Positions 1-29,042 of a stretch of DNA of 33,474 nt are shown here, in pieces. Under the pieces are notes generated by a model. It was not told the DNA's origin, searched no databases, and worked only from the letters and a program-made list of their open reading frames with translations. The stretch lies in assembly GCA_041308705.1 (NCBI GenBank), contig JBFZBA010000017.1:1-33474 (forward strand), given 5' to 3'. The DNA is from Candidatus Altimarinota bacterium. Its GTDB lineage: Bacteria; Patescibacteriota; Gracilibacteria; BD1-5; JAGOOR01. A program made the translations under genes and the position numbers. The stretch's first letter is position 1, and every line of letters begins with the position of its first letter.

Positions 1-1685
1 GCTTTATCGCCTGCGACTGCTGGATCATCGATGAGTGAGTTACCACACTTTATATTGTTATCGAGTGTTTCTAATTTTTCACCTTTTCGTAAAGTCTTGA
101 GCCAAAGAGAGAGACGAGTAATTTCGACAGATTCTTCATTGAGGTCAACTCAGTAAATATTATTTTTCAGAATTAAACGATATGTAGACTCGTCATCACC
201 AACTTTCAATTGGACGCCTTTTTCCCCATAAATAATATCCCTAACTCTCTTATTTTCCGAAAAGAGAAAATCAAAAACTCTGACAAGGAAAGCACCAGAG
301 CCACACGCAGGGTCGAGAACTTTGACATTTTGGAGGATTTTCTGATATTCCGTGTAGGCTTCGATTTCTCTCTTACGGTAGGTCTTTTCTGCGATATCTC
401 CTTTTAGTTTGTATTTTTCAATAACTTTTTCTTCGTGTTCTTCGAGGTACTTCCCGAGACTGTTTCGGACGATATAATCGACGATATAGGCAGGTGTATA
501 AAATATGCCGTCTTTCTTGCGTTTTGAGACTTCTTTTTTCTCTTCTTTGATTTCTGTTTTTGCACTCTGAATCTGGTTGCGAATACCCTCTAAATCAGAA
601 ATACTTTGTTCAAATATGTGTCCGAGGATTTCGACAGAGAGTTGTCCTCCATCTTCAGAAAAATCATAACGACCAAGATCTGCAAACTCCTGACATAAAT
701 CATCTGAAATTTTTAGATTATCTATTTCTGGATCCTCCTTGAAAAGTCCTCAATTGTAGTGCGGGATTGATTGGGAATTATTTCATTCAGCAATGGAGCG
801 AAAATACATCTTGATAGTATCCCAAACAGAAAATCAGATAGATTTTGCCTGTGTTATATTTTCGGTAAGTCTATCTGGTGGGAGCAATCATTTATTATCT
901 TCACAAAAATATATAAAAACAAGTCTATCAATGATTCTCTGAGTTTTTGCAATAACCTGAATGCCTTGCATAGATACATTGTTTGTCCATATATCCCTCA
1001 TTAACCGTTTGCGCAAGTCTGCATATTCTTTGTAGAATTTTTTAGTAATCAATTCTTGCTCGATACGGACTTTCGCGAGGATTTTCTCAGTTTCACTCTC
1101 TCCTGTCTCGGATATGAGAGACTCAGCCCGTAGTAGGAGATAGAAGGTACGGAATTTCTCGTAATCATTTGCAGGGTTGATGAGGTCGGCAAGTGTCCAG
1201 ACTTCGTAGTCCTGGTAGGTGTCGCGGTAAAGGCGAATTTCCTGGTAATTACTGACGATAACCCAACGAGAATTGTAGAGAGGCTTGTACTTGAATCCTT
1301 GCTGAATCGGTGTCATATTTCCTTCTCTCTGTTGTGGTCTGTCGATAGAAGTACCCGCATCTTTGAGCTCTACGACGGCCTGTGTCTCATTTTTGTCACT
1401 GGAATAATATCCGAGACCTATGTCACAGGTTTGACCATTTGAGGCATTTTTTGGGTGCTTCTCACGAGTGTATAATCCTCCACTCACATCATTGTATCCG
1501 AGAATAGTTCAGAAGAGTTTTTCTGAGTAGGTCGCTTCAAATGCTGTTTCCTTTTTCTTCTGAAGTTCTCACTTCCGATACATCTCATTCCATTCATGCA
1601 GAATCGCTATTTTACTCTCTATATCAGGGATTGATACATTTTTGAGAGCATCTTGGAGGACGATTTTGGAGAAAAGGTGAGCCAT
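1..1685 (-). CDS. Type IIG-like restriction-modification enzyme: N-terminal PD-ExK-like nuclease region fused to a gamma-class N6-adenine DNA methyltransferase. The 3' end runs off the window start.
   Basis: ATG at 1683-1685. ORF-track piece 888..1487 extends in the same frame through 7 in-frame TGA (1569, 1509, 888, 834, 783, 750, 150) to position 1. Motifs: CDIG..(18 aa)..VELK near the N-terminus; IPHYN-G-GLF with the first G encoded by TGA 750-752; methyltransferase motif I VLDPACGSGAFLV (rc of 282-320); NIYGVDLNEESVEITRLSLWLK; NIKCGNSLI at the edge. The NPPY motif would lie beyond the window. Confidence 0.7.
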
Positions 1686-1764
1686 TATGTGAGATTATAT
1701 CCATTCCCCTCTTTTCACAATCAAAAAATCCAGGTTTCCCTGGAATTTAAAAAATGAATAAAAA

Positions 1765-1840
1765 TGGTGCACCCGGCAAGGTTCGAACTTGCGACCCTCG
1801 GTTTCGAAGACCGGTACTCTTCCAGCTGAGCTACGAGTGC
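1765..1840 (-). tRNA. tRNA-Arg, anticodon UCG, CCA encoded
   Basis: The reverse complement reads GCACTCG-TA-GCTC-AGCTGGAA-GAGT-A-CCGGT-CTTCGAA-ACCGA-GGGTC-GCAAG-TTCGAAC-CTTGC-CGGGTGC-ACCA. This gives a 7-bp acceptor stem, a T-loop TTCGAAC, and the anticodon loop C-T-TCG-A-A. Confidence 0.85.
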
Positions 1841-1999
1841 ATACTTGCAAAATAAAAAAGAATAAATAAAAAAGAAAAAAGGAGGACTATAAATCGTTAT
1901 CAAATCCGCTGCTTTACTTTTACTTCTTCTTTTACTATGGCGAAGTCATCCGGATTATAGAGAAGTTCGCATATCTTGCAAAATTTTCTTGCTACGAAG

Positions 2000-2037
2000 A
2001 ATCGAATGGGCCTACCCTAAGTAAATCGAATGGGCCT
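2000..2037 (+). repeat. Two direct copies of the 14-mer AATCGAATGGGCCT (2000-2013 and 2024-2037), spaced 24 nt start to start
   Basis: Exact 14/14 repeat read directly in the tRNA/lipoprotein intergenic region. Confidence 0.6.
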
Positions 2038-2044
2038 GTCCCGC

Positions 2045-2085
2045 CCCCGCCTCTGGCAGGATAAACACAGGCGGGGTTGAATTTT
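2045..2085 (+). terminator. GC-rich hairpin followed by a T-rich tail (intrinsic-terminator-like or attenuator-like)
   Basis: CCCCGCCT (2045-2052) pairs perfectly with AGGCGGGG (2069-2076), and two further pairs are possible. It is followed by TTGAATTTT. No upstream plus-strand gene is visible. Confidence 0.35.
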
Positions 2086-2125
2086 CACTAATAGGGGTTA
2101 TACTGAGCGAGTAATTTATCAACCT

Positions 2126-2401
2126 ATGAAAAAACTCCTCCTCCTCACTCTCCCCCTCCTCCTCGTAGCCTGTGGCACGAGTAAAGTACGACCAGTAGAG
2201 ATATCAACTGACATTCCGCCACAGCCCATTATCGCCCCTGCTGAAGAAAACAAAGAAGAGGTGAAAACAGAAGAAAAAACAGGAAAAGAAGTCCTCGCAA
2301 AACCAAAAGAATCACCAAAAACAACTGAACCAGAACCAACAACAGATGATATGACGAGAGAAATAGACGCTATGATCGATGATCTCATCTCAGGTTTCTA
2401 A
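2126..2401 (+). CDS. Small lipoprotein (91 aa)
   Basis: MKKLLLLTLPLLLVAC: a signal peptide with the lipobox L-V-A-C, followed by a low-complexity E/K/P/T-rich mature part. TAA stop. Confidence 0.6.
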   Translation: MKKLLLLTLPLLLVACGTSKVRPVEISTDIPPQPIIAPAEENKEEVKTEEKTGKEVLAKPKESPKTTEPEPTTDDMTREIDAMIDDLISGF

Positions 2402-2410
2402 TACTCCCCC

Positions 2411-3787
2411 ATGATTCGTGACTTCAGAATAGAGAATCATCTTTTTTCTCCTCACTTGCGCAATGGCTCTTATGGGGCATTTTTTGAGCAAAGTAGTGAA
2501 TTTACCATAGATACGGCAAATACAGCGACAGTCGCAGCATCTCTCTGGTATATCGATACTGTGCCAGTGAAGCATCCAATACTCGAGCTCGAATCAAGGG
2601 TATCTGTGGTATTGGCAGAGATGGAGGTACGATGAGTCTATATCGATGAGGAGATACTGAAAAATCTCGAAAAAGAACTAGGAGGAGCTATCACAGATAT
2701 AGAGATGAAAGTAGCCAGAGAGACAGGAGAGACGGTCAATCTCGCTTCCCCGCTACAGCTCCAGAAGCTCCTCTTCGAGACAATGCAGATAAAACCTCTC
2801 AAAAAAACAAAAACCGGCTGGAGTGTCGACGAAGAAACACTCACCATCCTCGCAGAAGACCATGAAATATGCCGTGATATTCTGCAGCATCGCCACGCGA
2901 GCAAGCTCCTCGGGACCTATGTCCGTGGCCTCGCAAAAAATATAAATCCAGAGACCAATAGGATACATACCACCTACGATACCCTCGGAGCCAGCACTGG
3001 CCGCATGTCCTCAAATGATCCAAACCTCCAAAATATTCCCGCAGGAGATCCGTGGAGTGATGAGATAAAGCGGGCATTTCGACCACAGCAAGGAGACTGG
3101 TCATTTGTCGTCGCAGATTATTCTCAGATAGAGATACGGATACTGGCTTGTCTCTCAGGAGATGAGAAGATGCTCGCGACACTCAAAGAAAAAAAAGACC
3201 TCCACTACGAAACAGCAAAAGTTCTCTTCGAAAAAGAAGATATCTCAAAAGCAGAGAGAAGTATGGCAAAGACTGTGAATTTTGGCGTCATGTACGGTAT
3301 CACACCATTTGGTCTCTCGAAGATGCTGGCAAAGAATCCTGCAGAATGTAGTGTCTATATTGACCGATTCTTTGGTCTCTATCCTGCTACCAGAGAATAC
3401 TTCAACCATATCGTCACAGAGACACTACGGGTAGGCTACGCGGAGACATTTTTTGGCAGGAGAAGAACTATCAAGTGACTCTCTGACAAGAACTCAATGG
3501 TACGTGAACAAGCAAAGCGAGAAGCCATGAACATGCCTATCCAGTGAACCTGCGCTGATATCATCAAGTACGCAATGGTTGGAATTTCTCAGGAATTTAA
3601 GAAGAGAAAATTAGACGCCCAGCTCATCATGCAGGTGCACGACGAACTCGTAGTCGAATGCCCAGATACAGAAACAGAGGAAGTCGAGAAAATCCTCCAC
3701 GAAGTCATGGAACACATCGTCGAATGGGATATACCCCTCACGGTCGATGTCTGAGTCGGTAAAAACTGGCTTGAAGCTAAAAATTAG
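2411..3787 (+). CDS. polA: DNA polymerase I, polymerase domain only (458 aa); no 5'-3' or 3'-5' exonuclease domains
   Basis: ORF-track pieces 2411..2635 and 2705..3478 are in the same frame and are joined through TGA at 2633, 3476, 3545 and 3752. Family A motifs: DYSQIEIRILA, KTVNFGVMYG, PIQ-G-TCADI (G = TGA 3545-3547), QVHDELV. The gene ends VGKNWLEAKN-TAG. Confidence 0.9.
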
Positions 3788-3872
3788 TCATAGTCATAGA
3801 AAAAAGTCATAGAAAGGAATTTTATTTTTCCCGATTACAAATCGATTCTATGACTATGACTTTTACTATGAC
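3787..3872. terminator. Inverted heptamer array (3x GTCATAG, then 3x CTATGAC) between convergent polA and rpe; putative bidirectional terminator
   Basis: GTCATAG at 3787, 3793 and 3806; CTATGAC at 3848, 3854 and 3866. AGTCATAGAA (3805-3814) can pair with TTCTATGACT (3846-3855). Both stop codons lie inside the repeats. Confidence 0.4.
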
Positions 3873-4516
3873 TGTGTAAATTTATTCAACCATCACAAAT
3901 CCCCTCCCGAAAAAAGTGCCGAGCTCATAACCGCACCTGTCGCACCAGCCTCAAGACAAAGAGGAAGTGTCTGTTCACCTATTCCACCATCCACTATGAT
4001 GGGAAGCTCAGGTCTCTTGCCGTGTATTTCAGCTATTTTGGGGAGAACTTCTGGGATAAATGGAGTCCCTGAGTAGCCTCATTTGATAGTCATGATGATA
4101 ATATAATCTATCTCCTGAATATAGGGGTCGAGATGATCGGCAGGTGTTGAATCGAGGAGCGCAAGGCCTACCTTTTTCCCTGCGTTTCTGAGTGTCTGAA
4201 TGATTTCATGCATGTCCTCATCACACTCGAGATGAAAAGCTACGGCAGAAACAGAAGGGAAAGAAAGAATTTTTTCAAAATATTCCGATGGCCTCTTCAC
4301 CATCAGGTGGACATCTACCGGCAATCAGCAATACTCATCCCCTTTTCACTTTTGCAAGAACGAAATATCATCCGGAGAGAGCATGAGAGAGGGTACGAAT
4401 TCCCCATCACCGATATCATAGTGAACGCCCGCTATTGGCACAGGGAGCTCGGCAATGCGACTATTCCACGACTGGGGAGTATCTATGAGAGCGAGGACTG
4501 AGGGAAAGATTTGCAT
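3866..4516 (-). CDS. rpe: Ribulose-phosphate 3-epimerase (216 aa)
   Basis: ATG at 4514-4516. Reads MQIFPSVLALID...GVHYDIGDGEFVPS...DVHLMV...IMTIK-G-GYSG...IVDGGI. In-frame TGA at 4346, 4325, 4079 and 3893; TAG stop at 3866-3868. Confidence 0.85.
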
Positions 4517-7800: not shown

Positions 7801-8672
7801 TGGATATGTTTGACCTCGGAACTGATATTACTGGAAGTGGGCTCATACTCGAATCTGGTACACCTATGTCATTTGAAGAAAAAATACGAGAAGAAAGAAA
7901 TGCTATCGGTATGAGCATATCTGGTGATCCACTCGATGGTCTCAAGCGGTACATAGAACGGAAGTCTCTCGGACTAGATAAAGTGAAGGACTTCCTCGCA
8001 ATACTCGAAGAAAGCATTACAGAAGAACAAATAATCGATGATGAGGTGAGCGATGCAGGAGAAGTAATAATAGAGGAAAAGGAGACAGAAAAAGATATAG
8101 AAAATGAACCAGAGGAAGAAAGAAAAAAAGAAAAAAAAGAAAAGCCAATAGTTCAAATAATCGGCTATGTCGATACGGTCAAAAAAATACAAACAAAAAA
8201 AGGAGACAATATGCTCATTGCGACTTGTTCGAGTACTGGGTGGAAATTCACAGTCGTCGTCTTCCCGAAAGTATACGATCAAATAGCTCACCATATCAAC
8301 TTGGGAGAAATCATTCTCGTAAAAGGTCGGCTCAATTGCAAAATAGAGATGCGCGAGATATCTATCGAGGCAGATCAGGTGAAGAGATCCACTATTTCAG
8401 ACCTCAGAACAGCTGCGAGAAATGAAGGAATATTTGGAGATGCAGAAGAGGCAGAATGACAAACTGTGAAGCAATTTCAGAAACTACAAAATACATACCC
8501 CTGCATCATAGAAGATAATATAATAACCCTCAAACTCTCCGAAAAAACACCCAGAGAGACGCTCCTCGAGATAAAGACGCTCCTCGAATGATACGCACCA
8601 GGAGACTACCATGTCTGGCTCGATATAGGCGGCACTATGATAGATACAAAGAAAAAAATAGCAGATAACTAG
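4875..8672 (+). CDS. dnaE: DNA polymerase III alpha subunit (1,265 aa)
   Basis: Starts [17 protein letters not shown] (PHP domain). Four ORF-track pieces (5067, 6438, 7704 and flanks) share one frame and are joined through 9 TGA (5010, 5046, 5862, 6159, 6300, 7467, 7599, 8457, 8589). Motifs: GPGR-G-SAAG (G = TGA 6159-6161), PDIDIDF, and an OB-fold region near the C-terminus. TAG stop at 8670-8672. Confidence 0.92.
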
Positions 8673-11600
8673 GCTCCTGTGGTCTCGAGAGTCGTTATGA
8701 CATCACCACTGAGTATGATTTTCCCGAGTTCGACTCTATCTCGAGAGAGGGTAAATATAACACGATTATTTTCGAGCTTCACAGACCATACAACATTGGT
8801 ATCAAGAGTGCGGATGACTCCACGATTATCGAGAGTGATCACTGGTCTATATGCGGTATCTGTGATATACGCTCATCACTTGAGAGTGTCGCGAAGTGTC
8901 GCAGGCTCGAGACGGAGACCATTACCGATGACAAATATTCCTGGCTTGTTTACTTCTTCGAGTGTCGCAACTTGTCGGTAGATAGTCTCTGGAAAATCGT
9001 ATCTTACACGCAGTCTCTCAGAACTACCCTGACGAATTGAGTAAGAAAATGTCTGCCCAAGAGTGATAATAGGTACCATAGAAAAAGTACTTCCCAGTGT
9101 CGGCACACCAGAATTTCTATCAAAAGTTGTGAGTGTCTCTGTTCAGAAATTAAGAGAAATTTTGGGAGTATTGCGGACAACAGAAGTAGAAAATACATCA
9201 CTATTACTACCGAATCATCGAGCCAGAGTCCAGCTCTGACTATCTATGTAGGATTGTACGCCCATCGGCAGAAGTGGGGAAACAAAGAGTGTTTTACCAG
9301 AGACTTGTCCATTTTTATCGAGAGTACTGATGCCGAGTCTTGGTGGGTCTGTAACGATGCGAGTGGTGTAGTCTCGGACTCTTCATGAGATGGTCACACG
9401 GACAACCATCCCTGTGCTCTCTTGCTGTGTCTCAAATGCAAATCTCGTCGCAGAGAGTTTCCTGTACTGTGAAGATGGGAGACGGAATATCTCAACATTG
9501 GTCAGTGTGTCAGCTGGGAAATACGACTGGAAATCAATCTCTGTAGGACTCGGGAGAGAGAGCTTTATCAGAGGTGGAATATTTGAGAGGATACTACCTT
9601 GTGAGAATTCTGCGTAAGCATCAAAGACAACAGTCCGAGGGAAACGTTTTTCTACAAGGCTACGAGCATCTGTGATAGTACCATAATACCATTCAGATTC
9701 GACAGGGAGGGATAATTTCTTGATACCGACACCTGGTGCGTATTCGGCCAGTGACCAATACTGAGAAGGCCCGATAATTGTCTTCTGACCATCAGGAAAG
9801 AGAAGAGAGATACTTCCGTTCGTATCAGTAGTGAGACGATCATTTGGGAGAATTGGGAGACGAATATCACGGATGCTCAGTGGCCGTTTTTCAACAGTAT
9901 TACTGAAGAGCATGAGCGATCATTTGAGGACAGCAATACTACTATCGCTCGCAAATCTGACTCTCTGACCAGCAGTCATATTGTACGAGGCAGTCTTCCC
10001 TTTTGAGGTCACCTCTAACACGGTTGATTCTGAGGTATAGCCTGATTGCCCTCCACGGATAACAAAGTTTGGAGAGAGATCCTGAATGGCACCATTTTCA
10101 TCGATATATCTTGCTCTGGTGAGAAGTGTCCTGTAGATTTTATTATGCTCGATAAAGACAATTCCATCTATGTCGGCAATGGTAGGAACACTCGAGATAG
10201 GCATGAGTGGATCATTTTTGGTCTGTGGGATAATATCTACTTGATAACGCCCTTTATTCTGCTGGGTCTCAAAGAGAGAACGGAAGAGGCTCAAACGCAT
10301 ATGTTCATTGCCTTGTTTCATATGTACCTGGTATGGGGCACTCGCTGGAGAATTGTTCTGTCGTAAGTATATCTGTCCATCTCGGGGTATGAGTGACATA
10401 TCTGCATTTCTAATATTGAAAAATTGACGGTATATATCATTCATAGTGTATACCTTTGGTGCATCTTTAATAGTGTATACATTTGGAGATTTTGTGTAGT
10501 TTTCTTTTCTATAGATGATACTTCAGAGTGAATAATAGAGATCGAGATCACCGTCACGGTCGTCATCAGTAGTGTGAATTTTTGTCTCAGCATTGACCCC
10601 CCGTGTATAATAGATGAGCTTCTGTGAATTACCCCCCTGAGTCACATAGAGTCACTGAGTCTGCCTGAGTCCTTGCTCTTCCATGGTAGTCTCAAATGTC
10701 GTACGAGCAGAAGGAGCAACAGGAGTATCAGTTGTGATTGATAAAAGGGGAGCACCGGGCTGAAGAGAGTTAATAGTAGAAATGACAGGTGCGAGCGGAT
10801 TGAGAATATTCGAATCAAGCGCAGCAAGATAACTGCTCGAACGATTGTTTTGGGCCAAGTGAGCGCTCCCCACTATTCCCTGAGCAAGGGATGGTATTTG
10901 TTCAAGTGTTTTTGTGTTATTTCACCATGCGACGAGATCCTGGATGACTTTATTATTTTCTGCCCTGTCCATCTGAATAGCATCTTGTATTAAATCAAAT
11001 CTCCTATTCATCTGCGCAATAGCAGGAGCCATCACATCTGTCTGAGATGAATTGGTGTTGAGGATTCGAGCAAACTGTGCTCTCCTCTGTGGTAACATAT
11101 CTATACCCTGAATCACCTCAGATAATTGAGTAAGTGATTGTCTTGGATCCAGATACTCTGGATTTTGTGTCGCTGCTACAAGCTCTCGAAGCATTGATGG
11201 GATTTGAACGAGAGATGTAGTATTGATACTTGGGTCAGCCAAAAGTGCTGTCTGAAGAGTATCTATAGATTTTTGAATACTATCAAAATTCGCATGTGAT
11301 CATCCAATACTCCGCTGTGGATTGAGTTCTATGGTATCCACATCATTTCTAAATCGAGCAGGGCTATCATATCATTGATATGCAATATGTATATCCCAAA
11401 AATCAGGGGGGAGATATCCTTTTCGTTCGGTGGCATGAGCAACGGTAGTTCACGCATTCCACTCAGGTACGATAGGGACTTGATTGTAGAGGCATTTAAA
11501 TTTGGTCGTTGCAGCAAATATATCTTCAGCAAATCCAAGCGCTGGAGCAAGGGATGGCATCTTTGGAGCAGGAGGTAGATCGGGGAGCTGAGGTATATCA

Positions 11601-14600
11601 ATAGATGGTGGCGGGATTTTTGTCGTCAATTGTGGGACTTTTGGGATGCGTGGCATAGGCGGAGCAGAAGTACCTATTGGTGCATCTGGGAGGGATATGG
11701 GCTGGAATGTAAAGTTATACTGTGGAATCTTGGCATTGATAGCAGGATTTATCTCTTGCTTCAGAGCAACATTTGGCCATCGTGGCATTTCAATAACAGG
11801 AATATTTGGTATGATTTCTGGTATGACTATAGACATAGCATGTTGGAGATTCCACCGCTCATTATGATTGACACCACATTCTGTTTCATAATCATTAAAG
11901 ACATCTATCAATCCTTGCCACGAATCAAGCGTCTTGGTATTAGCGACAAATGATTCTGTCCAGTTACTGAAATTTGGACCATTGTCCTTCATCCAATCTC
12001 CCATAAATTTCTGTGTTGATGCGACATTTTGTGAGAGACCATAGAGGTATTTCTCTTTTTCATAATAGTATTCTTGGATCATCTCTGGCATTTTTTTATA
12101 TTTTTCAAGTTCACGGAGATTTTCATATAGTATGGCTTCATTTTCAGGACTTTGAGGAGCATTAAGTGCTTTTTTATACTGAATCATTTTTCCATCAATA
12201 TCTTCAGTTCTTGGGTACGGGAACACGGCATCAATAGTATCCTCTGCAGGATCAACAGTAGGATATTGCGAAATATGTTGAGAAAAAGTCCCTGGTACTG
12301 CGTAAGGTACTTTTGGTATATTCAAATCATCAGAAGAGCCAACTCCTCGATTCCCAGCAACAGCATTGGCAGTCGGTATGATACTACTGAAAAGTCATGA
12401 TGATGGAATATCTGAAATTCAGGATATGCCTTGTGGGAGATTTTCAAATTCGAGTATTGCTCCCCTGTCTGCGATCGAGGAGAGATCAGGGAGTCATATG
12501 TTGAGATCAGGAAATTGAGTTAGACTTGAGATAATCTCATTCATCTGCCTGTCATACCAGTCCATGATAAAGTTTGGAAAAGGTTTAACACTCTTGAGAT
12601 TGATCGACTCAGGGCTAACGGCATTTCACCCCAGGAAATTCATAATCTGTGGGTTGAGAGCTATTTTGAGTATATCATCACCATATTTCGATAGGAATTC
12701 AAGTGCTGAGTCAGATGACGACCCTTCTGCGACAGTAGCATTTTCTGTAATACTCTGGAGAACAGCTGAGATATTTCTATCGTTGGCATTGGCAAAATAA
12801 TTCTCTGTAGTCTGTGAGAGAGCAATCGGGTATGCATCTATCATCTGAGAAGGAGAACATGTACTCGCATTAGAAAAAACAGCTCTCTCTCTCCTCTCTG
12901 GATTTTTATCATCTTCCTCCGATGGAGGTAGACTGTCAGATACATCGGTTTCTGTATCAAGTGGCGCATCTTCACTTCCATCGTTGAAACCCTGAAGTAG
13001 CTGTAAAATTGCATAAATACAATTCCCGTCAAACTGAAGAGGAAATTTTCAAGGTTTATTTTGGATAGCATTATTAGGACCAAAACAGACAAGCTGAGTC
13101 ATAGCACCTGTGAGAGTCGTATCCAAGAATACACGGAATTTCGAGATACCAAGTCCTGGTGTATATTCTCCTGCTTTGAGACCTGTGACCGATCATGCAG
13201 CATTGGTACCATCACTGAGACCACTACCCCCCGTGGCAGCTGGTGAACCTGGGAGTAAGTCACGAAGACCTCCTGCTCAACGACGCTTTGCACCAGGCGG
13301 ATATGAGATAGCAGGATCTCAACATAGGACATTGTTATGACAAGCTTTTCCTGGAATATTTGCTTGTGGAACAGCATATCCCAGAGCAGTAATAGTGTTT
13401 CCTGGCATATTTGGTGACCAGTTAATTGGCTGAGAAAAAGAATTCCCGAAACCAGAAGTAAAGCCTTCAATAATCTGATCTATACCATTTGTAATTCCTG
13501 CAACAACTGAGTCAATCTTTCAGAGGCTTGAAAGTATCTGTGGAATATTATTCTTCATGACCATTTGAAATACTTCCCCGTAGTCAGTGTCATCTTTGTC
13601 TGGTATGCCATCACCATCGCTATCTTGATTCCATTCTGCGAGCCGTCTTTGTGATTTTTCCGCCATCTGAGCTTCACTCAATTGTTCAACTGGGCGAGGG
13701 TTGGCATTACTAGTAGGAGGCGTGCTCGTAGGGTCCGCACTGAGTCGGAGAGCATTTTTCTCAGGGTCATTTATCTCTCGAGTGATGACAGTCTTTTGAT
13801 ATGTACGATCATAGGTATTGTGTGAACGATAGAGTAGGAGTGGCCCACCACATGTTTCATTTGGATTAAATCGTATATCACCGTAACTATCATGATCATA
13901 AAACTCACTTTCTGGTATGGATTCTTTCCCTGAAGCAGTCGTATTAATGCTTCGAATATCAGACTTTGGAAGTGTACTTACAGATGTCGGATCTTGACTA
14001 TCTTCAATATAACCAACATCAAATTTACCAAAAGAAAACGACCTGAGCGTACCAGTGTAGATGAGCGTTATGGTCTCACCAGGAGCGAATGATACATTTC
14101 TCATGTCTGCTATTCCTGAATGATGATACTGACTGTCGATGATAAATTTTCGTGTTTCTTTTCCGGTACCGCGGACAATATCATATTCTGTATCTGAGGG
14201 TGAGAGATAGTCAGCAAATTTCTCAAGCAGAAGTATGTTACTGATTTTTTGTGTTGAATTATTTTTGAGGATTATTTTGACTTCTATTGGAGAACCAGAC
14301 AGTACTTGTCCAGAGGCTTCGAGAGATTTATACTGTTTTTTTACGGAGAGCGAAGCGGGTATGATAAATGGTGCCTTGAGAAGATGAAGCGCATCATAGC
14401 TCTGATCTGGACTCGTGACGACAGATACGATACTATCATTCTCATCTTCAAATGAATCATAACCAAATCGGAGTGAGCTAGCGAGATTAGTAGAATTTCC
14501 ATCGTACATGCGCAAAAGACCATTTGGAAGACCAGAGAGACTATTGGTAGAATTACCGGCAAAGCTGTCTACTACTGCAGTCCCCAAACTTGGTGATGGA

Positions 14601-17600
14601 GCTATGGTCGCGGGCTGAGGAGATGGTACCTGTATCTGCGTAAAGAGGAGATTATTTGCTTGTTCTTGCTTTGTTCGGAGTTCAAATGTAGGTGGTACAG
14701 GCATGGTATTTGGATCAACAAATCCAGGACCATTGTAGCGAATTGCCCCTGTGAAATAAGAAGCCTTTGCTTCATCCGACAAGACGAAATCATAGACATT
14801 ATCCATGAGCTGTACGCGGAAGATACCAGAGCTGTGGCCATAAAAAACAAATAAACTTCCGAGATGATCCATCACAATAATATCATCAATTCTATCATTA
14901 TCCATATCAAAGACTTCGAGTTGTTCTATTTTTCAGAGTATTGGTGTTACATCGTATTGCATTGGTTTTTCCGTCGGACCATTTTTGTCATGTACCACCA
15001 GGTGAATCTCTCCTGAGTTATCAACAAAAACTATATCAGCATATCCGTCACCTATGAAGTCTCACGACAGTATCATTCATTGCTGTGCATCTCTGACAGA
15101 TAGGAGATCTCCTCCATCGAGAAAAGTGCCATCACCACGAGAGAGTCACATTCATATAGTACCATTATCGTGGTAGACTATGAGGTCTTTTTTCTCATCA
15201 CTATTTGCATCACGGAAAGTAAAATCACTCACACGAGCTCATGATATATATATTGGCTCTCCGGGAGTTTTATCAAATCCTGTAGTATTATCTACTCCGT
15301 AGGCTGGGAGATGAATGAGGGGATCTCCGAGATTAATAGTCAAGTAATCTGCATGATTTTCCATCGATTCTCACCACTCCTGTCATGAGGCAAACTGGAG
15401 GAGAGAGGTATTATCATCCGTCCAGCCGAGACCATCTTTCTCGGGATAGGAAGACCATCACTGTGTATGTGTTCACCCTAGATAAGTATTTGATGCGCCT
15501 GACATATATACTACCATACCAGGTACCTCATGAGAGCTAACATTACTCCAGGTGAGCTTTGTAAGAAGTGTTGGGAGGAATGGTTCTACGATGATATCGC
15601 CAGCCGTATCTACTCAAAACTGTTTTGGAACTCGCGGCTTCCATGCGAGTCAGAGAGTACCAATATTTTTACCGTTTGAAGTAACTGAAAATTGGAGGAC
15701 TTGAGTATTTTTTTGTACAAAGGTAAGTGAGAGATTTGGGAGAGAGAATATTTCTGTGAGAGTAAAAAGTTTTTCTGAATTTTGATACACACTTCCGTCT
15801 CGATAATAAATATCCGAACCAGCTGGGGTGAAAGTCATCGTGTCTCGGCTACACACGCCCTCACATGGACTGAAAGAAATATCAGACATAGCTGGGTAGC
15901 GAACACGAGCAATAGCACCGAGGCGTGAGTCAGATACCGAGAGAGTGAGCGCATTATTGATGTATGATTCTATTTGAACCTTGATACCAGTTCCGTATTG
16001 AACAGTACCAGTTGTGAGACCACCTGTCGGCATGACAGTGATAATAGGACTCACTGATGTATCGAGAAGTGTGGTGAGTGCGAGAGTTTTTGTCTGTGGA
16101 GCAAAGAGTGTTGATCATCCAAAATATCATTCAACAGGTGTCTGTCAAAATGGCGCACCGAGTAAAACTTGAGTCAGGTTCTGCCAACGATTTTGAGAGG
16201 CTTCTTCACTCGTGATAACAGGAAGTGCATTTGTCTCAGAGACATTTTCCAGTGCAGGAAGAGGAGATTTTTTACCATCTTTCTGGAGCCAACCGCGGAA
16301 CAATATACGACCAGGATTTCCGACACTGATGATATCCGTTTCATAGATTCCTCTAGATACTTCTCGTGCAGATGTGAGTGGCTGGACGAGCGCATCACGG
16401 TCAGCTGTAGCGACTATCGTGTGCCCATGAAGTGTGGTCAGATTACCATAACTATCATAAACTCGGGTAGTGAGAGTCCCCCGTGCTCCAGCTCGAGCAA
16501 AGAGAATCTCGGGACTGGTAAGAGCTATACGAGCAGGGGTACCTGGTAAAATCTGGAAGCTCTCTCCCACTATTTTTCCGAGACCTGTTTCCTTCATGTA
16601 AAAAGAAATTGTAGCAGGTTTTGTACCAGTCTTTATAGTAGTTGTCGCACGACCTCATCGGAAAATAAGACTCTCCTGAGCGAGTATGGCATCACCACCT
16701 CTTATACCTATTTTGATAGCGGTATCCCAATTATCGACGAGAGTACCGTCAGCTCTCTGAATACTAAAATTGACAGGAATTTCCTGACCCACCTCAATCT
16801 CATCACTCCGAGGAATATCGACCTTGAGCAGTGCATCAGCGAGAACTGGTCGAGAAAAATTAGTAGATATTTTTTGAGCATCTCGAGTCAGTGTGATGTC
16901 AAAAGTAGTGTTGCCTGATTCAGTTGGTGTCAGTGTGAGAGGAGATGTAGCCTTAGCTGAAAAAACTGTATTTGGCTGAGTTGATAATGGTGATATTTTT
17001 ACTCTCGTTGAGCTCTTGATATCCATATTCCAGTCCTTGAGGTCAATGCTATTTCACCAGGTATCCTGGAGTAAAAATGATACCTTTTCTGGAGTATCAC
17101 GGATGAGTAGACTCGAGAGAATTGCTTCCATCTTGACTGGTTTATCTGGCGAAACCATGAAATAAGCCTGAGAGGAATAATCCCCTGCCAGAATGGTGAT
17201 AGTGTATTTCCCAGCTTTCCTCAGAACTGAATCAATAGCAGGACTCCCTAAACGAATACTATTATTTGTCACAGGTACAGATTTATAGAGTCATCGTTCT
17301 TGGCCTGTCACATAGTCCTGAATAGAGACATATACAGTTCCTGGATATATATCCAGACCAGACAAAATCAACTCCAATCCTCTCGTGTCACCAGCGGTAA
17401 TTGTGTGTGAAGTGTCAGTACCTGTAGAACCAATAACTGTCACGCCGAGGACTATCGGGCCAATCAATATAGAGTCTTGTTTTGAAGTAATGAAAATACC
17501 TTTTTCATCATAAATACGGGATGCAAAAGTAATCCGTGCGCGATTATTATTCTGCGAAGTAAATGACCATGAAGCATGTCCGTCCAATAGCGTATCAGAA

Positions 17601-20600
17601 CCAGAAACACTAAAATAACGCTTCTGAATATCTACCCAATCAGTATCTCGAGAGGAATAACTCTTCTTTTCATCGAGGTCATCTATGCGGATGACTTCGA
17701 GACGAATATTAGTAGAATCATCGTCGAGCCTGAAATTTCCTTCATCAAGCGTCGTATCTATACGAACTGTTTCGCGAGGCTTGAGAGTACGAGCCGAGAC
17801 TGAGGTATTGAGTGAGAGTCAGTCTCTCTTATTTTCTACATAATCCTGAACATTATTTTTGTTAGTATCTGACTTGAGAAAACTTTTGAGTTGCTGCAAC
17901 AATCCAGAAATATCACCAAGTCCACCAGTTGAAAAAGGAAATGCGGGAAAATCAGAAGTATCAGCGGTAAGTGTAGTTGATTTTACATCAGTAAAGCTCT
18001 GAAGCCAACAGAGAATTTGACTGAGCCACTCCCACACTATGACACTTGAGAGCAGTTGACAATCAAGTTTTGATGATGAATCGCCACCTGACTGCTTAGC
18101 CTCTTTTTCATCACGAGGTGTGTCACGAAGTACATCTGATTCACCGAGGAGTGTACGGATTTCACCAGGAGAAAGAGAGTACGGAAAATCATCCCCAGAA
18201 TCAGAAGGTGATGAATCAAATACTATATCACTGTGGACAGCTTGTATATCTGTGAACCATTCTGGGAGAGGATTTTTTTTCTCTGGAGCAAATCAAAATA
18301 CAAAATTTCTCGCATCACCCTGACCTCCGAGGTAACTCGTTTCATAGAGATCTTTTTTATCTGGGAGGATGAAATTTTTATTCGCAGTAGTAGGAGCAAG
18401 AGCTCGTTCAAAGACAGAGGTATATTTTGTTTCAGTGTCGAGATATTTCCAGCGAAGTGCCTCGATGAGAGCATTTTTGATGTCAGTATTTGCGAGAAGT
18501 GTGTCTGCAATATTCACAGAATTCATACCAGCATCTGGCACGAGCTGAGACCATTTATGACCATTAGGGAGATTTACCCTCGGTGTGAGTTGAGACTGAG
18601 CTCATGAAAGAGCAGTACGAATTTTCGCAATTATGACATCATCCGTATCGAGCGGATTCACGACGATATCAAATAGATTTGGATAATTCACACGAGACTG
18701 CGTTCCAGTCCGATTGAGATAGAGGAGATATCTCTCTTCGTCTATTGGGAGGTTTGGTGTCGATAATCCCTGGAGCTGTTTTCCAAAAACACTCGTCGTC
18801 GGATCACTGTGTTTGATGAGTGATGGTATTCTCTTATATGTTCATGAGAGTCCGTTCGTTTGACATGCTCCGAGATTTTTTCCATCACGATCGAGGAGAG
18901 TGATGTCACCATTATTCACAGAACATCGTATGAGACTCGAGAGAATATTTTCATTTCTGTCAGGAGTGGGGTCAATATTTATTGGATTTGGCGTCGGTCG
19001 TTGAAGCGGAGTTGCACAAGAATATCTGTTTCCATTTGTTTCAGTAGGCCAATTGTATTTCTTATTTGCGATTCAAACATGCTGGTACGGTCGGAGTATG
19101 AGATCAGTGTTGAGACAATCAAGTGGTGAGTTCACTGCAGTTATTTTCTTTCCTGCAGCAGGATCAAGAATAGGCAAGACGAAATCATCAGAGCGAGAAG
19201 AATTGAGTACCATTCCACTATCTCAGTAGGTCGAATTGATTGGACTATTTCCGCCCCAGTATGACAATGTCGGATTTGGGCATACTATCCCTGCATCTGT
19301 GTCGCGAGCAATAATTTTTCCATCAGATTCACCTGCGAGCATATTATATCCATGGTTCATCTGAACCGTCGTATTGACTCATCCAAATGTCGAACCACGA
19401 ATGAGGCTACAGTCACTCGCAGTCTTAATAGTATTAGCCTTTGTACCATAGAAATAATTATCATAGACGAAATTATATGTACGAGTCACTCGTCTTCTCC
19501 CTTCTGTTTCTGTGATAGTTTTTTGAAAAGGACGACTCACCAAAATAGGGATATCGAGAGAGAGATTCCCTTCAACATAAGTATCTATCAATTTTTCGAG
19601 AACATCGTTACCTTCTTTGATAACCTGAGCAGAGAGGGCGTCTTTGGTCGTGATAAGCTCAGGAATAGTGTCTACCCTGACACTGGATGAGTCATCATAA
19701 TATCGTCCAGTATTGTGAACCCACTTTGTCACATCTTCGAGATATTTTTTATTGATAACTTTGATAAATGGCGTGATGAGCCCATCAGCAAAAACCTTGG
19801 TCGTGATATCCGAAGCTTGATCCAAAAATGAAGCTCCAGGATTTGGTTCAGGTTTCCAATTTTGAAAACTCGGTATTTTGAGATTTCCCTCAGATTTCAT
19901 GAGAGACAGAAATCCTGCATAGAGATATTGAGCAAACTCACGGGAAAATCGATTATAGACCGTGTGCTCCTGATTAGGGATAAAGAACTGCTCGTAGACA
20001 GAGAGAAGTCATTTACTGGCTGCACGAGATTCATTGATACTATCCATGTAGAAAATCTGTGGATCTGTGCCGACATTTTGGTAACGTCATTTTTTGTCAT
20101 CATATTCGTAGACGCGAGCAAAAAAATCACGAATCTTTGTTACATCAGTATCGATATCTCCTGTATTTGGACTGATGACAGAATGCCAGATATCAGGACG
20201 AGGATTTTCTTTTTTCTGTGAGAGAAATTCATATCGTGAAGTATCCCAATTCCAGAAAAAATGAGGCTCATCAAAATCTGTGTACGGAAAGAGTGAGAGG
20301 AAGTCTGTGGTATTTTTGTGGACAACAGGAATCGGGAGATGTCCGATAAGTATAGTTCCCACTAGTTTCTGAGTTTTATTGCCGTGCTCTGGAAGTCCAG
20401 AGAAATACAGTCGTTCATTGGCAGAAGCTATAACATACGGATGAGTATCGCGAGGAAATGTCAGGATAACTGCGCGTGTGTGTGGAAGTCGAGCCTGTAT
20501 ACGGCGGGCATAGGCATCGATATCAGAGGACATCTTGCGAAACAAGTCTTCCTCCACAAGGACAGATACTATATCTTCATGATCTCATGTCTCCGATGCA

Positions 20601-20695
20601 GAAACATCAGAAATGGTAAATGGAATACGAAAAATAACCTCAAAAGAAAGGAGGCCTATCAGAAACCATGCAATGATCTTTTGGATAGGAATCAC
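8669..20695 (-). CDS. Giant membrane-anchored surface protein of about 4,008 aa (Ig-like, FG-GAP, CARDB-like, TSP3-like Ca-binding and Pro-rich segments)
   Basis: All 18 minus-strand ORF-track pieces from 20087..20557 down to 8876..9106 share one frame (low coordinate mod 3 = 2). My codon-by-codon scan of every gap found only TGA (about 49 in total) and no in-frame TAA or TAG between the TAA at 20729-20731 and the TAG at 8669-8671. Many gap lines were cross-checked against plus-strand ORF-track translations. The only canonical start is GTG at 20693-20695. It gives IPIQKIIAWFLIGLLSFEVIF, a predicted N-terminal transmembrane or signal anchor. Confidence 0.8.
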
Positions 20696-20778
20696 GAAGG
20701 TATAAATATTTCCATTATTGTACTCATTTTATTTGTAGAATAAAAGGATTATCATACCTTCTCGCTTGCAAAAATGCT

Positions 20779-21927
20779 CTAATCTACATAAATATATCCT
20801 ATGATAGCAGGATTACTAAAATTCTCCCTCCGAGTTGTCACTTCGTTGAGTGCTCGGTAGTTCATATCCTTGATGATCATATGGTCTTCATTGACTGCCA
20901 TGACTATACCGACATGCCCATACGCAGGCGGAAATCCTGCACCATGATAGACTATGATAGCTCCTGGTCTCGGATCATTTCCCGTTGGTTTTCATTGCTT
21001 TTTCGCATTTCTGATCCAATCTTTCGCATTACCACGCCAAGTGACATCTTTATATTTTGCAACAAAACAAGTACAGTTTCCCCAGACAAAATTACGACAT
21101 CATTTACTGACTTTGAGACCGAGAGAATAATCTCCATAAGTGAGATTTAACTGATCTCGCACAACTGGCTTCGGAGCTGGTTTGAGTGCTGGCGCTGCTG
21201 GTTTTGGAGCATTATTTTGTGCAGGAGCTGGCTTGGCAGCTGGAGTAGTCTTTGCAACCTGTGGAGCTGGTTTTTTGGTTGGGTCTTTTGTGGGATTTGG
21301 GAGGAGAATTTGTTTACCGACACTGAGTCTCGTATTACGGCTCATATCGTTTGCGATGAGGATAGTGTTGATATCTTTGATGCCATATTTCTGTGCGATA
21401 GTACTCAGAGTATCTCCCTTCTGTATAGCATACTGGACACCATTGATACGAGGAATTGTGATTTTCTGGTTGATTGAGAGAATATCGGTATTGAGATTAT
21501 TCATCGTGCGCAGTGTCGCAATCGGTATTCCATATTTCTGAGCAATAGTACTGATAGTATCACCTCTCACGACTGTATGTGTGACATAGAGTGATCGCTT
21601 TGGGTCAACTGTAGGCTCTGGTAGCTGTTCGGCTTCTAATGCGAGAACAGGTGCAGGCTCTGGCTCTATGAGTGTCGTCTCGGGTGGATTCTGGACAAGG
21701 TCCTCTATGAAGTCAGAAGTGCTCTCCCCTGTCTCCCAATCGTAGGAAGCGAGAATAGTGGAACGGTCATATTCGCCTCGAACAACCACACCTGTATAGC
21801 TCTGCATGTAGGAACCAAATACTGGGTAGATAGGGACGATGAGGATAAGTAAAAACGCGAGATTACTGAGAGTTTTCTGACGAAACTGTTTTTGGCGACG
21901 CAGGCGTGTAGAAAACTTATTTCGCAT
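20779..21927 (-). CDS. Membrane-anchored LysM-LysM-CHAP (NlpC/P60-like) peptidoglycan hydrolase (382 aa)
   Basis: ATG at 21925-21927. Transmembrane anchor LAFLLILIVPIYPVFG. Two LysM motifs (HTVVRGDTISTIAQKYGI..., YAIQKGDTLSTIAQKYGI...) and a Pro/Ala/Lys linker. The CHAP domain is read through TGA 21100 and 20992: GNCTCFV...WRGNAKDW...YGHVGIV. TAG stop at 20779. Confidence 0.85.
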
Positions 21928-21930
21928 GGA

Positions 21931-22929
21931 TTATTTTTTTTCGTTATAGATGAATCCTACTATATTTTTATTTTTTATCTTCTCGACACGGGTTGTCACT
22001 TTCCAGAGTCCAGCATAATTCATATCTTTAACGACCATTGTACCAGCCTTTGCATTGACACTCATGACGATTCCGACATGTCCGTAAGTGAGATTATAGC
22101 CTGGACCATACCAGACAACTATAGCCCCCGGTCTCGCTACTTGACCAGTTTTAAATCCTGCGGCATTAGCATTTTTATACCAATTTCTCGCGTTTCATCG
22201 CCATTTCACTGGCCAATATTGAGCTACAAAATAGGTACAATGACCAGGAACAAATCCTGCCCCACCTTTATTGATGAGCTTGAGAGTAAAGGTTCCAGTA
22301 TTAGGCTCACCTTGACCACCAGAAACACTACCAGCATTATCGATAGCAATTGATGGTCTCTGTGCATCAGGGAGGAAGAGTGTAATACCAGTCGGAAGTA
22401 CATCTCAGAGGAGGTTCGCTGTACGGATTTTCTCGCTTGTGGTCTTGAATTTGATAGCTATGGCATCGAGTGTATCTCCTCTCTTGGTCGTATACATGAT
22501 ACCATCACCTGGTGGGATGATGAGTTTCTGACCGACACGGAGGGTATCAGTGGAGAGATTGTTTGCCCAGCGAACAGTGTTCGCAGACATACCAAATTGT
22601 TCGGCTATTTCTCAAATTGTATCACCACTCTGAACGAGATATTCCTCAACTGTAGACCGCTGATTTCCCTCGGGAGAAGTCTGTGGATCGATAAAATCAG
22701 CATCAGTAACATCTGTATATTCATTGATAATAGATGTCTCGTTGATATTTACACCAAGCGCACCTCTGTTAGAACCATCATAGATAAAAGCACCAAATAC
22801 GGGATAAATGGGTAATAAAACGACGAGTGAGAGAATGAGAAGAGAATTAGAAGTCCTCACCCTCTTCATCCGTGCTCGGCGAAGAGCACGACGGTCGCGA
22901 AGATACTTGGATATAATTTTTGGAAGCAA
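21931..22929 (-). CDS. Membrane-anchored LysM-LysM-CHAP peptidoglycan hydrolase, paralogue of 20779..21927
   Basis: Pieces 22612..22929 and 22405..22590 plus the downstream stretch are joined through TGA 22612, 22405 and 22195. Motifs: LLILSLVVLLPIYPVFG anchor; YLVQSGDTI-G-EIAEQFGM and YTTKRGDTLDAIAIKF (LysM); GHCTYFV...WR-G-NARNW...YGHVGIV (CHAP). TAA at 21931. The start is uncertain: TTG 22929, or ATG 22869. Confidence 0.8.
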
Positions 22930-27314: not shown

Positions 27315-29042
27315 CTAGTAGACTAATTTCCTATAACACTCCTCACACACCACCTTCTCAGGTCTCTCCGGAGCATAGGTAGTAATTATAGGTTTCTGAC
27401 ACTCTGAGCAAGTCCTCTCATACAGTGTTCGAGGATTTCTCAGATCCATTCTTTCCTTATGTCTCTGGTCTGGATGCTTCGTGGGGATAGGAAGAGAATG
27501 TTCTATGTAGAAAGCCAGTTCTTGTCGGATGATTTTAAAGGGTTTGCCTGTTACTTCACACTGTACTATTCCTGAGAGAAGAATATCAATATTCTTCTGT
27601 GCTGTGTCGTATCCTACTTTCTTCTCATCATACTGGGATATGGGGAGTGGTGTGAGAGAAGACCCTTCAAAGGTCTTTACTGGTTCATCATACCATCTCC
27701 ATCCACGAGACTTCACTTCTTCTTCAGTAAGTGGGAAGTATTCCTGTGCCAGACTCTCATTATATCACCATGGTGCATCAGATATTGAGAAGAATTCGCC
27801 CCATGTTCACTCGTGTGTCATGGCATCAATGATGTTGCCTACCATGGTTTCATATTCGTGGACTCAGTAGGGTTTATTGAGAATGCAATGGTGTTCATGG
27901 TTGTGCAATCAGACACATCAGAAACAATTCTGTATACTATTGCAGTCCTGAGAATAGATCACATTGGAAACATCCTTCCATACATCTGCACAAAAAAGAA
28001 GATTCTGAGAATTCTGACCGACAATTGAACATTCGTAGCACCACTCAACATTCCAGCCAAAATTATCGACATCCATGAGATTTTTACCTGTTTTTATATT
28101 GCTACAATACCGCAATTTCTCACAATCAGAGCACTCGAAACATTGGTAACAATCAGATGCATTGATGATATGATTTCCTATTGAATTCTCTACTTTCGTT
28201 CATTCAAAATAACGCTTTGGCTGAGTAGAGATCCATGTTCTAATTTTGGGAACCAATAATCCTATATCAAGAGTCTGCAGTTGATTGAAATAGTCTTCTT
28301 TGGTATACTGTTTATTGGCAATACAGTATGATTGATTCGTGAGATTGGCACAAGAAAAACAATCACTACAACCCGTACACGCATGACAAACGAGACAATC
28401 GCTACACCGTGTTAACCCCTGGGAATAGAAACATCTTTCACAGTTATTGCAGTCAATACACTCATAACAATCACGACATTCGTATATCGAGAGACAATCA
28501 ACACACATCTCGGATCGGACAAACATTGCCGTGTAATAGAGTTTTTCAGAGTTTCATCCATTGAAGGAGAGATAACTATCTTTGAGATTATTAGCATTAT
28601 TACAATAATCTGAATTTTCTAAAAGAGAACAACTGCGCGCAAAATGAGGAACTCTCAGTGCGAGGGAGTCGATTTGTTCAAGAATTGGAATGTCTGGATT
28701 ATATTGCTGACCATATTCGAGAGGATTCCAGCTATCACTATAATAGATATCATTCTCATATACGGAGTACGCTTTGTCTTCTGAGTGCATACTAAATATT
28801 GTTTCATCCGAGTAACTACTTTTTCGGAGGTACATTTTTCGCTGATTTCTGTAGCTTATTCTTCGTCTCATCCTCTCCTCCGGACACAATGTCGGGCTCG
28901 GAATACTATATTTCTTCCCTCCAAATATTGGTGAAACTTTATCCAGAAATTCCAAATCTTTGTCCGTCACAAGGAACTCCTGCCCACTCATGCGACACTT
29001 TTTTGTTTCAACGATTTTTTCACCAGGAAGAAGGATGGGCAT
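27315..29042 (-). CDS. Cysteine-ladder repeat protein, paralogue A (575 aa)
   Basis: ORF-track pieces 28554..29042, 28200..28526, 27918..28115 and 27315..27716 share one frame and are joined through TGA 28554, 28200, 27918, 27909, 27864, 27807 and 27765. The register is confirmed by plus-strand ORFs 27529..27870 and 27813..28028. ATG at 29040-29042; TAG at 27315. Confidence 0.8.

Follow-up and report, generated by a model that had tools for sequence, protein, structure and literature searches.

Very large proteins that combine signal peptides or transmembrane segments with adhesion-type domains are described from Vampirococcus lugosii (1,392–4,163 amino acids, aa) and Strigamonas methylophilicida, predatory Absconditabacteria of a sister lineage that also uses genetic code 25, and giant surface proteins have been proposed as host-recognition factors in these relatives (PMC8080830, PMC13059738). 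In groundwater Gracilibacteria, 'VCBS repeat-containing' proteins, which may or may not belong to the giant family treated here, have been detected in the metaproteome (PMC11452946). Here we analyse a 33,474-nucleotide (nt) stretch of a Candidatus Altimarinota bacterium from the Gracilibacteria (BD1-5) lineage (contig JBFZBA010000017.1; hereafter the window), whose minus strand carries at 20695..8669 what is, judged from its sequence, a single intact gene of a code-25 bacterium. Its product belongs to a conserved family of giant proteins, and we favour, with some but not high confidence, an exported giant surface protein that most likely makes physical contact with another cell, either host or prey. 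To our knowledge, no Gracilibacteria (BD1-5) have been cultivated. A conserved giant exported family present in many genomes is one of the few concrete, trackable candidates for the cell-contact apparatus of this group, whose members are small and depend on hosts.

8669..20695, minus strand: the whole giant gene, with a GTG start at 20695, a TAG stop at 8671-8669 and 4,008 sense codons that include 49 TGA (Gly); the product aligns end to end with the closest homologue, P0001, in a single high-scoring segment pair

The reverse complement of 8669-20695 is 12,027 nt long, a length divisible by 3, and its frame 0 contains 49 TGA codons, no TAA and a single TAG, which is the last codon. Because the other two frames of the same strand hold 73 and 131 TAA or TAG codons, an open frame of 4,008 codons lies far beyond chance expectation (about e^-73 or less). 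The GTG start has an in-frame TAA 12 codons upstream with no start codon between the two, and the predicted product of 4,008 aa is acidic, with an isoelectric point of 5.1 and a mass of 442 kDa. An earlier reading of this stretch, made by a model from the letters alone (the sequence-only reading), had counted by hand about 49 TGA and no TAA or TAG, and re-translation bears this out, the only TAG being terminal. It had also pieced the gene together from eighteen open reading frame (ORF) fragments, which is about right: with table 11, ATG, GTG or TTG starts and a minimum of 60 aa, 17 in-frame ORFs appear on the minus strand. Its further statement that every minus-strand ORF of this size lies in one frame fails, since 15 others are out of frame; the in-frame ORFs are much longer (up to 461 aa) and together span about 62% of the gene. 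At its 3′ end, the gene meets the convergent dnaE in the palindrome CTAG at window positions 8669-8672, where the two TAG stops (8671-8669 and 8670-8672, respectively) overlap. This leaves no intergenic terminator between these genes.

The frame is open only if TGA is a sense codon, and TGA is used as such throughout the window, with nine in dnaE and others within the neighbouring LysM-CHAP genes. Three lines of evidence, namely the DnaE sites, the spectrum of residues at TGA sites and the exchange of TGA with GGN codons, show that TGA here encodes Gly and not Trp. The DnaE TGA codons at aa 46, 58, 429 (in the GRGSAAG motif) and 865 align with Gly of Thermus aquaticus DnaE (PDB 2hpi). Where the giant gene has its 49 TGA codons, homologues have G in first place and S, N, D or A next, plus a 'W' that comes from code-4-translated databases; genuine Trp codons (TGG) of the query face W, Y, F or L instead. 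At the codon level, TGA of the window pairs with TGA or GGN in the orthologues of loci L004 and L001, and the same is seen in reverse; it never pairs with TGG. TGG is itself kept as TGG at 40 of 41 aligned sites in L004 and 33 of 41 in L001, and at no site does TGA take its place. In-frame TGA is altogether missing from some relatives: the 3,817-aa homologue P0028 in locus L007 contains none and ends in TAA, and five further loci have no TGA over at least 1,460 codons. The giant ORF is therefore a trait of the family as a whole, and neither recoding nor read-through is needed to explain it. Many public homologues (P0001-P0008 and other Logan/JGI entries) are translated with code 4 and so show Trp where the organism inserts Gly, and other public entries are 65-110-aa fragments from standard-code gene calling. 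Standard-code gene callers shatter such genes into dozens of 'hypothetical' fragments, and mistranslation with code 4 or code 11 hides the family and degrades both alignments and structure predictions.

A homologue search over 5.8 billion proteins returned 47 homologues, seven of which align over 69-100% of the length at 35-76% identity; the remaining ones (the P0008-P0047 set, of 3,100-6,300 aa) carry the same blocks in the same order. The closest, P0001 (4,001 aa), aligns from 1-4008 to 1-4001 in a single BLASTP segment at 76% identity, and P0005-P0007 (~4,000 aa) align over ~100% of the length at 35-36% identity. The comparison thus shows full-length collinearity within a size range of 3,800-4,400 aa, together with an N-terminal hallmark (aa ~38-202: ..VSxLVEE..LVGTxLIGxxPxP..FPYxDF..EIWHxVI..) directly behind the signal peptide. 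To map its spread, one genome per species was scanned across 185,579 species with two N-terminal peptide patterns (tblastn), and at least 177 reference species have a relative. Among the best 80 of these 177 matches, the label reads Gracilibacteria, Peribacteria, Peregrinibacteria or Patescibacteria group in every record except three with generic titles, and the closest genome among the listed matches is that of Gracilibacteria isolate DAH.8, with 94% identity over the 165-aa core. Similarly, an exhaustive hidden Markov model (HMM) search with this core over 1.84 billion cluster representatives finds it in 491 clusters, always at residues ~40-220 of proteins of 3,100-5,900 aa, or in fragments. 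Members are named 'VCBS repeat-containing protein', 'hypothetical protein' or 'S-layer homology domain-containing protein' in the databases (e.g. NUJ97433.1, MCK5461308.1). On these alignments, the giant protein belongs to a conserved, collinear, lineage-restricted family that is widespread in Gracilibacteria and their relatives. The sequence-only reading had stated that most of the protein matches nothing it recognised, which is true of curated domain and structure libraries and untrue of protein collections at large, where dozens of full-length homologues exist. Two contigs of the same metagenome-assembled genome, CAZKLD010000019.1 (L045) and CAZKLD010000021.1 (L054), hold two copies of the N-terminal hallmark, which points to paralogues in some organisms.

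These data bear directly on whether the gene could be an artefact, that is, a run of small genes, a pseudogene or a chimeric assembly made to look continuous by reading through TGA. Table 11 does split the region into many ORFs, and the public calls of relatives include the 65-110-aa fragments mentioned above. Such an origin is at odds with the absence of TAA and TAG from 4,008 codons when the other frames hold 73-131, with same-length homologues that are collinear end to end, with homologues that lack any in-frame TGA, and with the TGA/GGN exchange in orthologues. There is also no sign of a chimera in the sequence: GC content is even along the whole gene, and the order dnaE, giant gene, LysM-CHAP recurs in the independent assembly L004. 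As far as sequence can show, an artefact is already refuted and effectively excluded. The claim of one gene with one giant product under code 25 is accordingly upheld by the single frame, the collinear homologues, the codon exchange and the DnaE Gly sites.

The N-terminus of the protein consists of a signal-like segment followed by the most conserved region of the family.

20597..20695, minus strand: probable general secretory (Sec) signal peptide, aa 1-33, with K6, a hydrophobic core at aa 7-25 and then VSA/SE
18206..20596, minus strand: N-terminal family hallmark region, aa 34-830, the most conserved region
20090-20584, minus strand: alpha/beta core of the N-terminal region, aa 38-202

A Kyte-Doolittle scan identifies aa 7-25 as the only strongly hydrophobic segment in the whole protein, and the family consensus at this segment reads ...FRIPxxxxxxxALA..., with a conserved AxA-type site. 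Since VSA/SE, like the ALA of the family, resembles a signal-peptidase-type site, the segment is more likely a cleavable signal peptide than an anchor; the sequence-only reading was right about a single hydrophobic segment, and its description of that segment as an anchor sits poorly with this site. The following ~800 aa are ~90% identical to P0001, compared with 76% overall, and are also the part common to the most distant members. They contain conserved Cys residues at 429, 472, 527, 560 and 611 and the invariant residues D140, R249, D352, E367, H629, K757 and E785. No match to this region was found in Pfam, NCBIfam or PDB by sequence or profile searches, and no NCBIfam model matches P0001 or P0009. 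Structure predictions were made with AlphaFold2 (AF2) on tiles of the P0001 equivalents as a proxy, 89% identical in the N-terminal tile and with W at TGA sites. The model of P0001 aa 34-830 has a mean predicted local distance difference test score (pLDDT) of 71.5 and a predicted template modelling score (pTM) of 0.64, with a confident alpha/beta start. Its top Foldseek matches, at expect values (E) of 0.05 or so and above, are generic alpha/beta folds (Rossmann/flavodoxin-like), among them a MID domain, PurE, lumazine synthase and asparaginase. A possible likeness of the core to peptidase C25 (gingipain N-terminal subdomain) was rejected: there is no Pfam match even at E 10, no PDB profile match and no gingipain among the best 50 listed Foldseek matches.

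Downstream of this region lie modules of extracellular type, which can be identified to different degrees.

16283..17533, minus strand: Ig-like stretch of the Big_1/invasin-D3 beta-sandwich type, aa ~1055-1471, probably three or four units
14813..15244, minus strand: FG-GAP/VCBS repeats, aa ~1818-1961, with Dx[DN]xDxxxD calcium-type motifs at aa 1829 and 1930
14873-15061, minus strand: Pfam FG-GAP_3 match, aa 1879-1941
13991..14386, minus strand: module called 'CARDB/DUF11-like' in the sequence-only reading, aa ~2104-2235, without a Pfam match
13589..13624, minus strand: DSDGDGIPDKDD, a TSP3-like Asp loop, aa 2358-2369, conserved in the family

The FG-GAP block is the best defined of these. 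FG-GAP_3 (PF13517) matches at E 7e-7 with 30.2 bits, above the gathering score of 26.9, a Pfam FG-GAP match is present in 10 of 11 nearer homologues, and the family profile finds PDB 8w20 at E 2e-8 through this block, so that the FG-GAP assignment of the sequence-only reading is supported; about three repeats are visible by motif. For the Ig-like repeats, which it had also proposed, the likeness emerges only at the profile level and by transitive homology. The family HMM repeatedly matches Big_1/invasin units of P0202 ('adhesin/invasin') and P0204 ('Ig-like domain-containing protein'), and Pfam recognises Glyco_hydro2_C5/Invasin_D3/Big_1 in the distant homologues P0020 and P0022 at positions aligned to aa ~1055-1471. 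Profile matches to intimin, an Ig group-1 protein and an S-layer protein in the PDB are faint (E 0.07-0.16), and Pfam Big_1/Invasin_D3 is not found in the query at E up to 1 and only weakly in one of the 11 nearer homologues. The proposed CARDB/DUF11-like module was not recovered, as neither CARDB (PF07705) nor DUF11 (PF01345) has a Pfam match in the query or the 11 nearer homologues; sub-threshold DUF11 occurs at the equivalent position in distant P0022 and P0020 (E 1e-3 and 2e-3; 19.4 and 18.7 bits against 24.6). The calcium-loop motif DSDGDGIPDKDD is present as described, and its D and P are invariant in alignment A7. The TSP3 HMM search that the sequence-only reading had suggested gives nothing significant in the window protein, TSP3_bac (PF18884) staying below Pfam significance in the query and being detected only in distant P0020 and P0022.

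The remainder of the protein, from aa ~2400 to the C-terminus, alternates between conserved and variable parts.

12986..13498, minus strand: conserved Cys-containing block, aa ~2400-2570, consensus CGFGxxxC..P.NWAPLAPG...FR.F.TPTLTG...CFG...NC, AF2 pLDDT ~30
11396..12613, minus strand: two conserved blocks, predicted mostly helical, aa ~2695-3100 (2695-2750 and 2850-3100), ending in a Pro-rich stretch
11555-11734, minus strand: Pro-rich stretch, aa 2988-3047, 30% Pro
10676..11368, minus strand: poorly conserved segment, aa ~3110-3340, the most variable between close relatives
8672..10663, minus strand: C-terminal region, aa ~3345-4008, moderately conserved
10541-10567, minus strand: second DxDxDG loop, aa 3377-3385

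The three conserved blocks at aa ~2400-3100, with their Cys residues and the Pro-rich stretch, have no known relatives; the Pro-rich linker noted by the sequence-only reading is real. Many of the 18 Cys of the protein are conserved in the family. Identity to P0001 falls to 43% over aa 3101-3200, compared with 76% overall, and faint composition-type profile matches of aa ~3110-3340 to apolipoprotein A-I and a helical bundle (E ~0.06-0.1) suggest that this segment may be helical. Over the last 660 aa, identity to P0001 is 77-81%, on a par with the protein as a whole; this end is not hypervariable. Distant members have, at about residue 3170 in P0009, 3040 in P0005 and 3084 in P0011, a strongly hydrophobic helix-like segment, FKAWVELFILIKAILKSW (family consensus ~aa 2890-2915), at a place that is polar in the window protein; this may represent a buried helix or an element interacting with membranes, since lost from the window clade.

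Two paralogous genes of the peptidoglycan hydrolase type lie directly upstream of the giant gene on the same strand, and each product combines a hydrophobic N-terminus with two LysM domains and one CHAP domain.

20696..20778, minus strand: intergenic spacer of 83 nt, probable promoter or regulatory site (alignment A9)
20779..21927, minus strand: upstream gene 1, LysM-CHAP (peptidoglycan hydrolase type), 382 aa, with an N-terminal hydrophobic segment, two LysM and a CHAP (Pfam LysM 4e-22, CHAP 2e-15)
21931..22929, minus strand: upstream gene 2, paralogous LysM-CHAP, 332 aa (Pfam LysM 3e-20, CHAP 1.6e-14)

The same pair, directly upstream and on the same strand, is found in the window and at 14 related loci (L001, L004, L008-L019), where the giant protein of L001 is 36% identical to the window protein and L008-L019 are the twelve nearest species. 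Within the spacer, TTTTTGCAAG is invariant in nine cases (the window, L004 and L008-L014) and is followed after 12-13 nt by a largely conserved (T/G)ATAAT-CCTTTTATT stretch in the same nine. A weak sigma-70-like match lies at 20755-20726, and the spacer probably serves the giant gene as a promoter or regulatory site of its own. The spacing between TTTTTGCAAG and (T/G)ATAAT is too short for a standard -35/-10 pair. No conserved partner genes were found in distant family members, whose neighbours differ. Adjacency to dnaE recurs among family loci and is probably just inherited gene order.

Elsewhere the window holds the following genes, listed as observations in their own right.

3-1685, minus strand: MmeI/Eco57I-like type IIG restriction-modification gene, its 3′ end running off the low-coordinate end of the window
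2411-3787, plus strand: DNA polymerase I homologue, 458 aa, with the polymerase domain alone and without exonuclease domains; of the same size in L004 (18397-19776)
24085-24714, plus strand: 209-aa ORF without a Pfam match
27315-29042, 29050-30780 and 30902-32647, minus strand: three tandem paralogous genes, Cys-rich and of ~576 aa, with many CxxC-type pairs; the product of 27315-29042 has a weak treble-clef zinc-finger Pfam match at its C-terminus (E 0.009)
32727-33263, minus strand: 178-aa ORF with a phosphodiester glycosidase (NAGPA) domain, which may be another envelope-acting enzyme

Good support for export and for a place at the cell surface comes from the N-terminal signal-like segment, the conserved Cys, the FG-GAP repeats, the Ig-like homology, the Asp loops and the presence of S-layer homology (SLH) domains in distant members. 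We therefore propose a model in which Sec would export the protein, the signal peptide would be removed, and the mature chain would remain at the surface as an extended fibre of many domains stiffened by calcium. Closest to the cell would lie the strongly conserved N-terminal 800 aa, serving assembly or anchoring, with the Ig-like repeats, the FG-GAP block and the modules behind them reaching outward. Specificity may reside in the stretches of low conservation (aa ~2400-2500, 2700-2900 and 3100-3200), and in the window clade the giant protein may act together with the two LysM-CHAP peptidoglycan hydrolases encoded upstream. A host-adhesin role is a reasonable candidate within this model. The label 'typical adhesin' given by the sequence-only reading survives as far as extracellular character is concerned; the type is doubtful, since across the class neither length nor domain order varies, repeats are missing and the N-terminus is conserved to an extreme degree. 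These traits suit a surface fibre or scaffold of structural function at least as well.

Several observations weigh against a surface protein devoted to cell contact. About 85% of the sequence is without a recognisable domain. Foldseek of the N-terminal P0001 model against PDB and BFVD gives no match below E 0.04, and the AF2 model of P0001 aa 2340-3109 is unreliable (pLDDT 42, pTM 0.26), with only helices at ~aa 2810-2900 reaching pLDDT 65-83. Self-BLAST at E up to 1 detects no internal sequence repeats. The protein has no LPxTG anywhere, no C-terminal hydrophobic segment and not one GGxGxD RTX motif, in agreement with the sequence-only reading, which had seen no sorting signal; SLH (PF00395) is absent from the query and the 11 nearer homologues and appears in distant P0020-P0023. 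No wall or membrane anchor was found in the window protein, and this bears on surface retention. In family loci further removed, no LysM-CHAP pair appears in the 4 kb upstream, and with a conserved promoter-like element between the hydrolase genes and the giant gene, co-expression of the two is conjectural. A fixed length, a fixed domain order and the lack of repeats are unlike most adhesins and would suit a structural or machine-like role as well. Finally, signal-peptide cleavage, surface retention, calcium binding and adhesion are all steps that we infer.

Two other roles are live rivals of cell contact. In one, the protein would serve as a scaffold of the envelope or S-layer type, coating the cell that makes it or acting as a spacer at its surface, and would bind no host. 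We regard this as unlikely on present evidence and still worth serious attention: the length and domain order are kept across the whole class without repeat expansion, the N-terminus is ~90% conserved at 76% overall identity, distant members carry SLH (one being named 'S-layer homology domain-containing protein'), and there is a faint profile match to the S-layer protein 4uj7 (E 0.07). It has to contend with the lack of SLH or any other known wall-binding domain in the window protein and its nearer relatives and with a mass of 442 kDa, which is generally far above that of S-layer subunits; moreover, a scaffold role and an adhesin role are not exclusive. In the other, the N-terminal 800 aa are a new catalytic domain, acting for example on host envelope polymers, that is carried on a long stalk as an exported enzyme or effector and works with the LysM-CHAP hydrolases. 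Invariant polar residues and conserved Cys in a region far more conserved than the rest, the two adjacent peptidoglycan hydrolase genes, and the proposal that giant proteins of other predatory bacteria combine adhesion with wall digestion (bioRxiv 10.1101/2023.11.21.568195) would all agree with such an enzyme. Yet no enzyme family is matched in Pfam, NCBIfam or PDB by sequence or fold, the similarity seen is generic Rossmann/flavodoxin-like alpha/beta similarity at E of 0.05 or above, and invariant residues can equally be structural, which leaves this role improbable in our view.

That the protein is a polymorphic toxin, or an Rhs-like weapon acting on contact through a variable toxin at its C-terminal tip, can be considered effectively excluded. 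Large size and FG-GAP repeats are features of such proteins, and the family profile does weakly match an 'RHS repeat-associated protein', but that match is confined to its FG-GAP repeats. Pfam detects no Rhs/YD repeats or toxin domains in the query or the 11 nearer homologues, the C-terminal 660 aa are conserved at the protein average where a hypervariable tip would be expected, and the gene downstream is the convergent dnaE and not a small immunity-like gene. A bolder version of the cell-contact model is that this is the protein of a lineage-defining Gracilibacteria surface organelle, in which N-terminal 800 aa of a new fold would anchor or assemble a fixed-length fibre that, with the LysM-CHAP pair, docks on the host and opens its wall. 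The idea builds on an N-terminal region without structural or sequence neighbours, an architecture fixed across the class and strict hydrolase synteny in the close clade, and we offer it as speculation with the odds against it.

The overall comparison with known systems is one of partial likeness. Like the FG-GAP/VCBS beta-propeller proteins (PF13517; for example the secreted esterase PDB 8w20), the window protein has FG-GAP repeats with Dx[DN]xDxxxD calcium-type loops; this block makes up less than 5% of it, and the rest is unrelated. Its aa ~1055-1471 are profile-similar to the Big_1/invasin-D3 arrays of intimin/invasin Big_1 adhesins, whereas the outer-membrane beta-barrel, the LysM-periplasmic module, the C-type-lectin tip and a Pfam Big_1 match of its own are missing. 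The type I-secreted RTX adhesins LapA, SiiE and MpIBP are likewise giant and acidic with calcium-loop-type motifs. The window protein differs from them in having neither GGxGxD repeats nor tandem repeats and in carrying an N-terminal Sec-type signal instead of a C-terminal signal for the type I secretion system. Calcium dependence is established for RTX adhesins, and for the window protein we infer it. Among the Absconditabacteria, VAMP_16_20, the largest protein of Vampirococcus (4,163 aa, 'hypothetical'), is of the same size class, the likeness being by description only, and none of the best 80 of the 177 genome matches of the window family is labelled Absconditabacteria.

The closest system is thus the unnamed ~4,000-aa Gracilibacteria family itself. 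Its members are already public, if generically named, and these lineages are known for giant surface proteins; what is new here is the delineation of the family, the N-terminal hallmark without a known fold, the spread that includes TGA-free relatives, the clade-specific LysM-CHAP synteny and the warning about mistranslation. The window protein shares with this family collinear homology, size, the N-terminal hallmark, the FG-GAP block and the conserved C-terminal blocks. It stands apart in that its nearest database member is only 76% identical, in that its clade is without SLH and without Pfam-detectable TSP3 or Big_1, and in the two LysM-CHAP genes that its clade keeps upstream of the giant gene.

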